DNA of 9,490 nucleotides. Source: an uncultured Gammaproteobacteria bacterium. Lineage in GTDB: Bacteria; Patescibacteriota; Patescibacteriia; UBA2591; UBA6264. The notes beneath the pieces are model-generated. The model did not search any database. It saw nothing but the letters and a program-made list of their open reading frames with translations, and had not been told where the DNA came from. Shown piece after piece: positions 2,101 through 6,939 of this stretch; position 1 is the stretch's first letter; each line of letters begins with the position of its first letter. The stretch is taken from NCBI GenBank assembly GCA_964507075.1, contig CAZDOL010000019.1, positions 1 to 9,490 of the forward strand, given 5' to 3'. The translations under genes were made by a program, and so were the position numbers.

Positions 2101-2307
2101 TTATTTCTTGCGAGCCTTGGTTGCTTTCTTGGTTACTTTCTTGACTGTCTTGCGTACAGGTTTCTTGGTCACTTTCTTGGCGACCCTCTTCTTTGCTACT
2201 GGTTTCTTCACTGCTTTCTTGATTACTTTCTTTTTTGCTACTGGTTTCTTCACTGCTTTCTTGATTGCTTTGCGTACAGGTTTCTTAGTTACTTTTTTGC
2301 CAGCCAT
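2101..2307 (-). CDS. Lysine-rich, highly basic repeat protein (histone H1 / Hc1-like nucleoid-associated protein candidate)
   Basis: 68 aa made almost entirely of K, V, A, P, T and R, with repeated KKPV(A/R)KK units. The antisense ORF 2108..2338 is a mirror artefact of the repeat. Confidence 0.7.
   Translation of the reverse strand: MAGKKVTKKPVRKAIKKAVKKPVAKKKVIKKAVKKPVAKKRVAKKVTKKPVRKTVKKVTKKATKARKK
2194..2266. repeat. Intragenic direct repeat (31-nt perfect copies, 42-nt period)
   Basis: tgctactggtttcttcactgctttcttgatt occurs at 2194-2224 and again at 2236-2266. A second, imperfect pair tgcgtacaggtttctt... lies at 2151-2180 and 2271-2300. These encode the IKKAVKKPVAKK and VTKKPVRK protein repeats. 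Confidence 0.9.
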
Positions 2308-3940: not shown

Positions 3941-4978
3941 TTAAGTATTTCGAACGAGCTTCTGTAATCTTTTTTTCAACTTATGACTTTTGCAATGTTT
4001 AAGCATCCCGTAATACGATTGCATTGATTGATCAAAAAAATCCCTTGAAACCAATCCTTGATTCAATTTTATTTTGTTTTCCTTAATTTTACTAAACATT
4101 TTCTTTTTACTTTTGGTCCGAAGCGTTATATAATAAGGCAAGACAACATAGCCCAGGAAATCAATTCCCTGACTAAACTTTTTGATTTCAACTTTTTGTG
4201 GATGAAGTTCTAAATCCAGCTTCTTGTTTAAAAAATCTTTAATCAAGACAACAAGGCATTCAAGGTATTTTTGGTCTTGACTAACAATGGCAAAATCATC
4301 AGCATATCTAAAATAATACTTAATCTTTAATTGTTTTTTAACAAACCAATCAAATTTATCTAAAAATATATTTGCAAAAATTTGTGAGGTTAAATTGCCA
4401 ATCGGCAAACCTCTCTCTTTTGAAAAACCATCCATATCATTTACGGAAAAACTTGATATAATCTGTTGAATTAACCACAAAAATCTACGATCATGTATTC
4501 TGTTTTTTATCATATCAAAAAGTTTTCGATGAGAAATGCTATGAAAAAATTTCTTAATATCACCCTTTAAAACATAAGCCGTTTGAGTATAGTTCTGGCT
4601 CACTTTCCTCAAAACATTGGATAAGTTTTTAACCGCCAAATGAGTGCCTTTATTATCTCTGGATGAATAGGAATGATAAATAAAAATAGGGTTAAATGTT
4701 CTATACAATTCTTTAAAAACAATGTGATGAATTAATCTGTCTTTAACTTCGGCTTTATCAATTATTCTGTGTTTAGGGTCGTAAATATGAAACCTGACAT
4801 AAGGCTCGTGCCTATAGGTTAAATCATATAATTCGGAATGAAGTTTAAAAATATTGTCTTCCAAATGCCGTTCAAATTCCATTACATCATATTTTTTAGA
4901 TTTACCATTTTTGAATTCGTCCCAACAAAGCAAAATATTTTCCAAACTAATTAAATTATCATAAATATTATGGAACAT
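3941..4978 (-). CDS. DGR reverse transcriptase
   Basis: 345 aa. Contains the DGR-diagnostic motif 4 GLPIGNLTSQIFANIFL (I/LGxxxSQ rather than the group II intron type), YxDD box FRYADDFAIV, and a conserved N-terminus ENILLCWDEFKNGKSKK. Its short length leaves no room for an endonuclease domain and I recognised none. Confidence 0.95.
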   Translation of the reverse strand: MFHNIYDNLISLENILLCWDEFKNGKSKKYDVMEFERHLEDNIFKLHSELYDLTYRHEPYVRFHIYDPKHRIIDKAEVKDRLIHHIVFKELYRTFNPIFIYHSYSSRDNKGTHLAVKNLSNVLRKVSQNYTQTAYVLKGDIKKFFHSISHRKLFDMIKNRIHDRRFLWLIQQIISSFSVNDMDGFSKERGLPIGNLTSQIFANIFLDKFDWFVKKQLKIKYYFRYADDFAIVSQDQKYLECLVVLIKDFLNKKLDLELHPQKVEIKKFSQGIDFLGYVVLPYYITLRTKSKKKMFSKIKENKIKLNQGLVSRDFFDQSMQSYYGMLKHCKSHKLKKRLQKLVRNT

Positions 4979-5320
4979 AAAAATAACGATATCCCAATAA
5001 TTAAAAATTTATACGAGCTATATAAAATATACTATAGTTATTCTACTCTATTTCCCAAAAAAGACAGATATACTTTAGGAGCTAAATGTGAAATGTATAT
5101 TATCGCCACGCTCGAACTCCTACTGGAAGCTAGTTGTGCTTATAGAGAAGAAAAACTGGAATTAATAAAAAAAGCCAACGCCAAGTTTGATACTTTAAAA
5201 CTGTTTGTTCGTCTTTTAAAAGATTTAAAAATCATTGACACTAAAAAATACATTGAACTGCAAGGAAGAATCCAGGAGATCGGCAAAATGCTGGGAGGGT
5301 GGCAAAGATCTCTGGGTTAA
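4970..5320 (+). CDS. avd: Avd-like accessory variability determinant (four-helix-bundle protein, 23S rRNA intervening-sequence protein family)
   Basis: 116 aa, helical and basic. The N-terminal pattern IPIIKNLYELYKIYYSYSTLFPKKDRYTLG matches the family consensus (FPkxexYsLg). It lies next to the DGR RT and TR. It is on the opposite strand to the rest of the element. Confidence 0.85.
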   Translation: MEHKNNDIPIIKNLYELYKIYYSYSTLFPKKDRYTLGAKCEMYIIATLELLLEASCAYREEKLELIKKANAKFDTLKLFVRLLKDLKIIDTKKYIELQGRIQEIGKMLGGWQRSLG

Positions 5321-5326
5321 GCAATA

Positions 5327-5357
5327 AATAAAGACCTCTTTAAACGAGATCTTTATT
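5327..5357. terminator. Imperfect hairpin between the convergent avd 3' end and the TR 3' flank (candidate bidirectional terminator)
   Basis: aataaagacctc (5327-5338), loop tttaaac, gagatctttatt (5346-5357). This gives 11 of 12 pairs with one C/A mismatch. It starts 7 nt after the avd stop at 5318-5320. It is AT-rich and therefore weak. Confidence 0.4.
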
Positions 5358-5389
5358 GATATAGACCTGTCTACCAGTAAGTAGGCGCA

Positions 5390-5510
5390 ACCCGAGGAAG
5401 ACGAGCCCGCCCGAATAGTTGTCATAAGCGTTAGCCAAATCGTCCGTGTTGTCGAAGTCAAGCTTGTCGTCGTTAGCTTTGAAGTTGAGCGAAGAGCCAG
5501 AGGACTGCCA
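5390..5510 (-). repeat. DGR template repeat (TR)
   Basis: Ungapped 120-121 nt match to 5920-6040. At all 14 mismatches this copy carries A on the minus strand. It is non-coding in the VR frame, with a stop just upstream. In the VR frame it carries five AAC codons. Confidence 0.93.
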
Positions 5511-5810
5511 GAAATTTGTCTTTTCCCATCTTTATCCACTGGGAAAATAGCTCGAAAAGTAATATTTCCCCTGTATTTTATTCGGCTCCTACCCGCCAGA
5601 GGCGGGTGTGCCTTGGCGCAAACCTTAGAAAAAGACAAGTAGTGCCTAAATTCTCGCATACTCTCCTATGGTCCAAATTTAAACCATAAAATTCTGATGC
5701 GTTGGTAGAAATCTAGAGTTTCGGCGAACCGTTATCCCCACCCGCCAACAAGCAGGACATGAGACCGGTTACATTAACCTACTCCTGTTCTCATTCTATC
5801 ATACTTCACA

Positions 5811-5844
5811 AAGAAAAACTAGGTGCAACGTTGTCGCACCTAGT
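5811..5844 (-). terminator. Rho-independent terminator of the DGR target gene
   Basis: 9-bp stem actaggtgc (5818-5826) pairs with gcacctagt (5836-5844), loop aacgttgtc. On the minus strand it is followed by TTTTCTT. It lies about 75 nt past the stop at 5918-5920. A T-run also follows on the plus strand. Confidence 0.65.
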
Positions 5845-5917
5845 GTTTTTCAAAAATGACCAAGAACCAAAATTCCTAGTCCAAAGACCAAGAAGACAAA
5901 AGACCAAATTCCTTCCA

Positions 5918-6805
5918 CTACCCGAGGAAGACGAGCCCGCCCGAACAGCTGACATAAGCGCAAGCCAAATCGTCCGTGAAGTCGAAGGCAAGCAAGTCGT
6001 CGAGAGCTTTGAAGTAGAGCGAAGAGCCAGAGGACCGCCATTGTAAAGCTGCTAAATCCAAGCCCGAGGTATTCCAATCTCGAGCAAGAATGTCGGGATA
6101 CATCACCATAGCAATGGCAGTATCCATACCTGAAAGGATAAATCCTTCTGGTAATGTTGACATTTGCTTTCTGTCGGCGTTGACAGAGAACCCTTGTAAA
6201 GGATTCGGGAAATGAAGTCCGATAACAGGACCTTCTTTCATTCGCTCAATGAGCTGGTCATGGCGGGCCCCATCAACAATGCTGACATTATTAGCCAGAG
6301 TGCCTTGGCGATAATTATTGAAACTCCGATGATCAAAGGCCTTGCCATAACTTTCCTTAACTCCTGCCAGATACAGTTCCATTTCGGCACCAAGATCATT
6401 ATTCACAATCTTGGGCATAATCACTGGCAGATAGACGCCTTTAGCGATATTGGCGATCTGAGGATTACCATTGACGATAGCCAACAGACGTTCGGTTTCG
6501 GACTTGAGCTGTTCGGCAGTTACGCCTGTGTCAATGCCGAGACATCCGTGAAGTCTCAAAATGCGATTGGCGAAATCCACGTCCTTCTTCAGTTTGGGCT
6601 GAATAAGGTGAAAATCTTTGTCTGGGTCACAAACGTTAGTTTGTAGTCCCTTAGGAATTCGGCGACCGCGTTTGTCAAAGAGTATTTTGACAATATCTTC
6701 AAATTTAACTGAAACCTCACCTCTCAATAATTTTTTTGCGTTCTCTTCTCCGATGATGTTAAGGAGCGCTTCATCTTGCCCTCTAGTCCAATCTGCGTAT
6801 TTCAT
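5918..6805 (-). CDS. DGR variable (target) protein of unrecognised family with a C-terminal VR
   Basis: 295 aa ORF preceded by a strong SD (AGGAGG). The last 40 codons (WRSSGSSLYFKALDDLLAFDFTDDLACAYVSCSGGLVFLG*) are the VR. No signal peptide or TM helix is visible. I recognise no N-terminal domain. Confidence 0.9.
   Translation of the reverse strand: MKYADWTRGQDEALLNIIGEENAKKLLRGEVSVKFEDIVKILFDKRGRRIPKGLQTNVCDPDKDFHLIQPKLKKDVDFANRILRLHGCLGIDTGVTAEQLKSETERLLAIVNGNPQIANIAKGVYLPVIMPKIVNNDLGAEMELYLAGVKESYGKAFDHRSFNNYRQGTLANNVSIVDGARHDQLIERMKEGPVIGLHFPNPLQGFSVNADRKQMSTLPEGFILSGMDTAIAMVMYPDILARDWNTSGLDLAALQWRSSGSSLYFKALDDLLAFDFTDDLACAYVSCSGGLVFLG
5920..6040 (-). repeat. DGR variable repeat (VR)
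   Basis: Copy of the TR at the 3' end of the target ORF. It has 14 substitutions, all at TR-adenine positions. Homology ends exactly at the stop codon. Confidence 0.93.
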
Positions 6806-6815: not shown

Positions 6816-6913
6816 TTTCAGGCTAAAAGCCCGAAAAATATTTTTTTCCTCTGCCTGAGGATTGGGATCTTTCCGGAGTTGGAAAGATATGTTTAATATA
6901 TCAAATTTTTACC

Positions 6914-6939
6914 AAAAAGTCAAGCATGCTTGCTTGACT
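6914..6939 (-). terminator. Rho-independent terminator of the ABC transporter operon
   Basis: Stem agtcaagca (6918-6926) pairs with tgcttgact (6931-6939), loop tgct. On the minus strand it is followed by TTTTGGT. It lies 45 nt past the permease stop at 6984-6986. Confidence 0.6.

Follow-up and report, generated by a model that had tools for sequence, protein, structure and literature searches.

What kind of protein does the retroelement on contig CAZDOL010000019.1 (assembly GCA_964507075.1) diversify, and does that protein act inside the cell or on its surface? The stretch analysed, here called the window, comprises the 9,490 nucleotides from position 1 of this contig and carries an open reading frame (ORF) for a 295-aa protein in the company of a diversity-generating retroelement (DGR), namely a template repeat (TR), an avd accessory gene and a reverse transcriptase (RT) gene. 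In DGR surveys, bacteria belonging to the candidate phyla radiation (CPR, Patescibacteria) are the group most enriched in these elements, and their target proteins are uncharacterised. A sequence-only reading of the window had described the 295-aa protein as a DGR target of unrecognised family, with no visible export signal and with a variable repeat (VR) that runs to the last codon. The explanation which accounts best for the evidence as a whole, and which we consider likely, is that the ORF encodes the variable protein of an active DGR of the Patescibacteria type, probably a soluble ligand-binding protein of the cell interior. The locus is a tractable example of its kind, having a large conserved family, natural alleles that show activity, and a clear scaffold pattern.

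The variable repeat and its natural alleles

The VR and the TR form a 121-nt direct repeat on the same strand (Table 1). Within the window they differ at 14 internal positions, at every one of which an adenine of the TR is replaced in the VR, and these mismatches are spread over 10 codons of the target (257, 264, 268, 271, 273, 276, 282, 285, 286 and 287). Identity extends through GGGT, the T of which is the first base of the stop codon (TAG in the VR, TTG in the TR), and past the stop codon the homology decays within about 6 nt. A G+C-rich block of 26 nt is shared without change by the two repeats, with divergence beyond the stop codon; by analogy with the Bordetella site for initiation of mutagenic homing (IMH) (Wu 2018, PMC5758913), this end of the VR probably functions as the IMH. 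The restriction of VR mismatches to TR adenines, together with the RT and avd genes adjoining the TR, bears out the assignment of the protein as a DGR target, and the VR was indeed found to reach the last codon and the first stop base.

The closest database relative of the target, P0002, is identical to the window protein over residues 1-256 and differs from it by 14 residues within 257-287. The metagenome contig that encodes it, L122 (JGI sample 3300005645, Ga0077109_1005588), differs from the window by 18 substitutions over 6,462 nt and is otherwise identical; all 18 fall in the VR (5946-6036), each at a TR adenine. L122 is a natural allele of the same locus. Since the two natural alleles differ only in the VR, and there only at TR-adenine sites, the DGR of the window is active in nature. 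It might be suspected from the relatives that the target has ceased to be diversified and its VR/TR pair is a relic, as the TR-avd-RT module is gone from 18 of 31 assessable family loci and seven of 12 related RT genes are frameshifted. In the window, however, both RT and avd are intact, and for this locus the 18 VR-only, TR-adenine-only differences of L122 refute the suspicion, to which we attach next to no probability.

Ten variable positions had been counted from the sequence alone. This number holds for the codons with mismatches in the window; the true set is larger, because 18 codons of the TR contain adenines, 26 in all, and the second natural allele differs at 14 codons. The invariant scaffold proposed in the same reading has been replaced by one derived from 260 sequences of the family, consisting of W256, S262, L263, F265, A267, L272, F274, L280, A283 and the terminal S288-G-G-L-x-F-L-G. 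In these 260 sequences the most variable positions, which are near-random, are 264, 266, 268, 271, 273, 276, 279, 282, 284 and 286, and entropy along residues 262-276 alternates between conserved hydrophobic and randomised positions. Beta strands with one face buried and the other exposed would be expected to produce such an alternation, seen here in the last 40 residues.

A mechanism can be proposed on this basis. The TR would be transcribed as a short RNA of its own, comprising promoter, structured leader, TR and terminator; the RT-Avd complex would copy this RNA with misincorporation at adenines, and the cDNA would replace the VR. In the protein the VR would form a beta-strand meander, its conserved side chains packed into one alpha/beta domain (residues ~70-295), while mutagenic retrohoming would rewrite every second residue of the exposed face and so produce a diversified ligand-binding surface. 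The invariant SGGLVFLG end would be fixed because it is the IMH homing site, and the protein would act as a soluble binding protein inside the cell.

Family, cellular location and fold of the target

The target begins with MKYADWTRGQDEALLNIIGEE and is preceded by the ribosome-binding site AAGGAGG, located 6 nt ahead of the ATG. An in-frame stop codon lies 5 codons upstream, so that no N-terminal extension is possible and hence no signal peptide can be hidden there. The protein had no match in Pfam, NCBIfam, PHROG, PADLOC or PDB sequences, in agreement with the earlier description of its family as unrecognised, and a profile of the family found nothing among PDB sequences either. When 35 members were searched against Pfam, none matched FGE-sulfatase, DUF1566 or lectin families even at E <= 10, a threshold at which only scattered weak matches appeared (DUF742 in 6 members, Myb_DNA-bind_4 in 3).

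A word-indexed homology search retrieved 215 relatives with 58-72% identity, all unnamed or annotated as hypothetical, and an exhaustive profile search gave 553 clusters at 50% identity (E <= 1e-3), 295 of them at E <= 1e-30. Nearly all clusters are about 300 aa long and cover the profile to its last position. The 39 genome loci of the family (L001 and onwards) all come from metagenome-assembled genomes, and wherever the organism title is informative it names Patescibacteria/CPR lineages, including Portnoy-, Doudna-, Nealson-, Kerfeld- and Buchananbacteria, Parcubacteria and Saccharibacteria; the sole exception, L015, is a 1,558-nt fragment titled Candidatus Gastranaerophilales. Ten third-party annotation records among these loci bear the title 'uncultured Gammaproteobacteria', which we take to be a placeholder. 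Judged from these records, this is a large family of Patescibacteria. Residues 1-255 are strongly conserved, with the motifs LFDKxGRRIP, GVxLPxxLP and FPNxLQGFSxxAxREQMxxLPEGFxLSGxDTxIAMxMYPDxLARD.

Residues 1-41 of the target are spanned by an N-terminal helical motif of about 35 aa (xTxGQxEAxxNxxGGxxxxxxxLxG), which occurs in one to three tandem copies across members (P0126, P0142, P0162, P0176, P0180, P0203, P0219 and P0228). The N-terminal extensions of longer relatives are one or two extra copies of this motif and contain no signal sequences. As to base composition, the target, leader and TR lie in a G+C island (~5250-6800; 44-48% versus 25-35% in the flanks), and the G+C content at third codon positions (GC3) of the target, its non-VR part included, exceeds that of its neighbours in 35 of 38 loci (L001-L038) by a mean of 14.5 points; RT and avd show no such enrichment. 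Avoidance of adenine was rejected as the cause of the high GC3, as four-fold sites of target genes show a general G+C enrichment (A x0.74, T x0.86, C x1.26, G x1.20) and no A-specific loss.

The highest Kyte-Doolittle mean over 19 residues of the target is 1.35, and its 30 N-terminal residues average -0.83. Hydropathy scans detected no signal peptide, lipobox or transmembrane (TM) segment in the target or in 270 relatives, whose only hydrophobic peak is a conserved internal core segment, FILSGxDxxIAMxMYP; one further relative was flagged for a C-terminal read-through tail. The earlier statement that the protein lacks such signals has thus been extended to its relatives, and an upstream in-frame extension, which might have supplied one, is excluded by the stop codon mentioned above. 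The accompanying remark that a target of this sort would be unusual does not hold for CPR bacteria, where targets without signals, TM segments and known domains are the published norm (Roux 2021; Wu 2018, PMC5758913), and with these descriptions already at hand the lack of a signal is of limited surprise. Predicted cytoplasmic DGR targets have also been described elsewhere, in Thiohalocapsa (Dore 2024, PMC10907252), while for CPR targets a genuine non-membrane-bound status 'remains to be established' (Roux 2021). From these data the target is most likely a soluble binding protein inside the cell, the binding role being suggested by the general behaviour of DGR targets.

Two other roles were weighed. 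The protein might leave the cell independently of a classical signal, by lysis, vesicles, a CPR-specific or C-terminal signal or a dedicated transporter, and then act on the surface as classical DGR adhesins do, for instance in attachment of an episymbiont to its host. Of the cellular DGR targets characterised so far, most are located at the surface (Roux 2021), Patescibacteria are described as growing on host cells (PMC11665869), and a MacB/FtsX-type ABC transporter lies directly upstream of the target in the window. Yet neither a signal nor a TM segment is seen across 270 relatives, the conserved C-terminus which might serve as a signal is already explained by the IMH requirement, and the transporter is not conserved next to relatives and is therefore no evidence for a secretion route; neighbouring gene clusters other than RT and avd each occur at 4 of the 40 family loci at most. 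The MacB/ABC transporter was accordingly rejected as the exit route, and surface action is considered unlikely.

Alternatively, the target might be the intracellular hypervariable sensor of a conflict system directed against phages or hosts, similar to the antigen sensors diversified by DGRs that have been proposed in multicellular bacteria, where predicted cytoplasmic targets are fused to NTPases (Dore 2024, PMC10907252). One distant member, P0266 (409 aa), carries an extra N-terminal domain of ~150 aa (residues 1-150) that weakly matches the PADLOC candidate PDC-S73 (6.6e-4) and the N-terminus of Avs2 (0.028). This is, however, a single effector-like fusion with weak scores among hundreds of clusters, the neighbourhood contains no conserved NTPase, effector or defence gene, and the target itself has no PADLOC match, so that a sensor of this type appears quite improbable.

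Turning to the fold, AlphaFold2 was run on an alignment of 35 sequences, and its best model had a predicted local distance difference test (pLDDT) of 81.3 and a predicted template modelling score of 0.79. In the predicted structure the N-terminus is a small helical bundle, with helices at 75-120, an alpha/beta core and the strands that carry the VR (248-256, 261-267, 271-277 and 287-293). Foldseek found no match with E <= 0.001 in PDB or BFVD, the best PDB match having E 0.93 and a TM-score of 0.14. Residues 121-295 modelled alone did not fold (pLDDT 48.7), which suggests that the VR strands belong to one larger domain and are no detachable module; isolation of the VR domain as residues 121-295 was dropped, this model being too poor for a fold search.

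It is conceivable that the VR-bearing C-terminal region (~194-295) is a very divergent minimal C-type lectin (CLec) fold, beyond the reach of sequence methods and Foldseek, and the target an ordinary CLec-type variable protein. This proposal concerns the fold alone and is compatible with a soluble intracellular binding protein. In the model the order of elements from residue 194 (beta, short alpha, alpha, four beta strands) loosely resembles that of C-type-lectin domains, including an invariant C-terminal strand as the final one. Solved DGR variable proteins are all CLec, the immunoglobulin (Ig) classes excepted, and new CLec variants are expected in CPR (Roux 2021); the archaeal AvpA subtype of CLec is likewise unrecognisable by sequence (Wu 2018, PMC5758913). 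Against this stand the Pfam searches reported above, in which FGE-sulfatase, DUF1566 and lectin families were absent from all 35 members, the failure of residues 121-295 to fold alone, and the absence of solved DGR or CLec variable proteins from the 38 Foldseek PDB matches (E <= 10) and from the BFVD list. An hhalign comparison of the 260-sequence family profile with a profile of the Mtd family (from IMG/VR loci), which covers the Mtd (CLec1) class only, returned a probability of 0.1-0.3%. Nothing positive supports a CLec fold for the target, and we lean against one while regarding it as a serious possibility.

A farther-reaching proposal is that the scaffold bearing the VR belongs neither to the C-type lectins nor to the Ig classes, but is a beta-meander within an alpha/beta domain of ~225 residues without known structural relative, in a protein that stays cytoplasmic and is served by an engine with parts of its own (a TR RNA headed by a structured 5' leader and, in relatives, an RT gene switched on and off through its repeat tract). 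Taken in full, this is rather unlikely. If true, it would amount to a third structural solution for DGR hypervariation and would answer the question left by Roux 2021, CPR DGR targets being then genuinely not membrane-bound. Either a new fold or a truly cytosolic protein would widen the range of what DGRs diversify.

Several points weigh against the preferred reading of the target as a soluble intracellular binding protein of an active DGR. The evidence on export and localisation is hydropathy only, no family-specific feature stands behind the binding role, and no ligand, partner or conserved neighbour gene was found. The other four of the five AlphaFold models reached only pLDDT 61-69, so that the best one is provisional. 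Last, out of 31 assessable family loci there are 18, each with a downstream stretch of 1.5 kb or more, in which neither a TR nor avd nor RT is found within 6 kb (L002, L003, L005, L007, L010, L017, L018, L020-22, L024, L029 and L032-37), which means that the protein is also kept without a nearby diversifying element.

The cassette, its leader RNA and related loci

The features of the locus are collected in Table 1.

Table 1 Features of the DGR locus in the window, with positions counted from the first base of the 9,490-nt stretch.
Feature	Position	Strand	Description
Target (variable protein) gene	5918..6805	-	295 aa; strong ribosome-binding site; in-frame stop 5 codons upstream; homologues
Promoter-like site of target gene	6895..6923	-	TTGACT, 17 nt, TATATT, extended TG; consensus scan 10/12, pattern match only
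Intrinsic-terminator-like hairpin, end of target transcription unit	5818..5844	-	12 bp plus T-run; equivalent hairpin in 13/13 cassette loci
Variable repeat (VR)	5920..6040	-	Codons 256-295 and first base of stop codon; last 40 codons of target
IMH-like invariant G+C-rich 3' end of VR	5920..5945	-	TTCGGGCGGGCTCGTCTTCCTCGGGT; identical in TR; encodes SGGLVFLG
-10-like box	5803-5793	-	TATGAT/TAGAAT; precedes leader, after target terminator 5844-5818
Conserved structured RNA leader	5511..5787	-	Immediately 5' of TR; starts GAGUAGGUUAAUG after -10-like box; covariation
Template repeat (TR)	5390..5510	-	121 nt; 26 adenines in 18 codons
Terminator-like hairpin ~30 nt past TR	5327..5357	-	Abuts 3' end of antisense avd; equivalent after TR in 13/13 cassette loci
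avd accessory gene	4970..5320	+	116 aa; NF033474 DivGenRetAVD 83.5 bits (cutoff 80); PF22296 bAvd; phrog_3206
DGR reverse transcriptase	3941..4978	-	345 aa, intact frame; PF00078 (RVT_1) 1.7e-25; phrog_1423 1.4e-107

The window and 12 genome loci share a common architecture, in which the target is followed by its terminator hairpin, a spacer of 230-455 nt, the TR, avd on the opposite strand and the RT gene; TR/VR mismatches in the cassettes of these 12 relatives are overwhelmingly at adenines. Of the 80 loci of the metagenome set, 66 had a detected avd, which in each case lies immediately upstream of the RT gene on the opposite strand; in the other 14 the contig ends there or no avd was detected. 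This layout matches the CPR architecture B3 (TR, opposite-strand avd, RT, target upstream), to which 90% of CPR DGRs belong (Wu 2018, PMC5758913). The start codons of avd and RT overlap divergently by 9 nt at 4970-4978 (ATGGAACAT / ATGTTCCAT), and among loci where tblastn matches both genes from residue 1 the identical overlap was found in L001, L008, L012, L013, L014 and L028.

The flanks of the window are made up of chromosomal housekeeping genes, encoding the MacB/FtsX permease and ABC ATPase already mentioned, MscS, an LD-carboxypeptidase and a histidine kinase. A 68-aa ORF at 2101-2307 (-) consists almost entirely of lysine-rich KKPV/AKK repeats, has no Pfam match and contains a 72-nt direct repeat (2122-2193 / 2242-2313); it may encode a small basic protein of nucleoid type.

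The structured leader, beginning GAGUAGGCUAAUG, runs up to the TR. Its structure was derived with RNAalifold from 13 cassette loci (window, L001, L004, L008, L012-14, L023, L025, L027, L028, L030 and L038) and comprises 51 pairs, of which 24 show compensatory changes; the share of paired cells is 94.5%, compared with 44-52% when the partners are slid, and none of 500 shuffles reached the former value. A covariance model, R1, built from the 3' 112 alignment positions of the leader, matched 59 of 99 sources, made up of the window at 5512-5648 (-) plus 58 other loci, in every case on the strand of the RT gene and upstream of avd and RT. The leader lies directly 5' of the TR in 13 of 13 cassette loci and in 29 of the 30 metagenome loci tested, in which TR and VR had been mapped, and it is also present at loci with an RT identity of no more than 44-54% and with targets from other families; R1 matched none of the engine-less loci. 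In the alignment of 59 sequences, which was fitted to the model and thus favours the structure, compensatory changes occur at 24 of 26 pairs, and the share of paired cells is 92%, compared with ~50% in slid controls. No Rfam family matches the window at E <= 1. By its covariation, this is a structured RNA 5' of the TR that is common to CPR DGRs.

Judged by sequence signals, the TR appears to stand in its own short transcription unit, composed of -10-like box, leader, TR and terminator. The hairpin past the TR, at a distance that across loci is ~10-30 nt, is probably a bidirectional terminator that ends the TR RNA. A GUAGG/CCUAC helix closing the 5' and 3' ends in the minimum-free-energy fold of the window TR RNA was dropped from consideration, not being conserved in other loci.

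At least three other families of small targets with C-terminal VRs occur in CPR DGRs that have the same leader RNA and avd/RT layout (L136, L139, L149, L150, L151, L157, L162, L166, L168, L173-176, L187, L189 and L200-202). Their C-terminal patterns are ...RVxVGxFDSxGLxV...ASRKF; ...YGSASxFLPQ; and ...GSRDxxGxVPxVxW...LRxRxAVS.

Related RT genes carry repeat tracts, (AG)5-11 or G10, at one conserved spot just before the GLPIGN motif. The former was found in L004, L008, L013, L014/L198, L025 and L028, and G10 in L038. In seven of the 12 genome loci the two halves of the RT are in different frames and the switch occurs exactly at the tract, the halves being otherwise intact; in two metagenome loci with (AG)10 (L123 and L124) the RT is in frame, and in the window the insertion is absent and the gene is intact. 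L198 and L014, whose RT is frameshifted, show three differences in 7,061 nt, none of them in the VR, in contrast to the window and L122, with an intact RT, whose differences are confined to the VR. The tracts may serve in repeat-mediated on/off switching of the diversifier.

Engine-less members of the family retain the VR-like scaffold, with a low adenine content there. The locus L013 is syntenic with the engine-less L003, from which a module of ~1.85 kb (leader, TR, avd and RT) is cleanly missing; in L013 this module is situated between the terminator of the target and the promoter of the next gene. The leader RNA, the frame-breaking tracts in RT genes and the clean acquisition or loss of the engine beside a resident target bear on how DGRs work and are regulated; none of the three was found described in Rfam or in the literature examined.

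Comparison with known systems

The leader-TR RNA resembles the Bordetella DGR RNA (TR and 3' spacer; Rfam RT-10 motif) in that the TR is physically linked to a structured non-coding RNA whose conservation follows the RT lineage. In BPP-1 the RT-10 motif of Weinberg 2017 sits between TR and RT, whereas in the window the structured part precedes the TR on its 5' side and a long 3' spacer is lacking.

As regards the protein, the CLec variable proteins (Mtd of Bordetella phage, TvpA of Treponema and TaqVP of Thermus) likewise have the VR at the extreme C-terminus with an invariant last strand encoded by the IMH, and in them too adenine codons (AAC and others) mark variable positions, the variable residues being borne on a conserved scaffold. 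The target differs from them in having no sequence or profile similarity and no Foldseek match of its provisional model, in its C-terminal hallmark, which is SGGLLFLG in the target family and GARGVCDHLILE in Mtd relatives, and in being apparently without a separable C-terminal domain, and without a trimeric fibre or a lipoprotein context. With the NTPase/STAND-CLec targets of cyanobacteria and Thiohalocapsa (Dore 2024, PMC10907252) it shares the lack of export signals and a predicted intracellular location; those proteins, however, are large and multidomain, with recognisable NTPase and CLec domains in conflict-system neighbourhoods, while the target of the window comprises one unannotated domain of 295 aa and is encoded among housekeeping genes.

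The closest likeness is to the DGR targets of CPR bacteria (RT clade 2, Roux 2021; UVR1-6 and ungrouped VRs, Wu 2018), with which the target shares taxon and cassette order as well as small size, a C-terminal VR and the lack of a TM segment, signal or known domain. Six 'unknown VR' classes (UVR1-6) and 45 ungrouped VRs have been reported in CPR, with no assignable fold or function (Wu 2018, PMC5758913). The target is thus a member of a known but uncharacterised kind, the signal-less, unannotated DGR targets of CPR, and what this locus adds to the published ones is the size of the family, the scaffold pattern, a structure model that has no match, the proof of activity and the existence of engine-less members.

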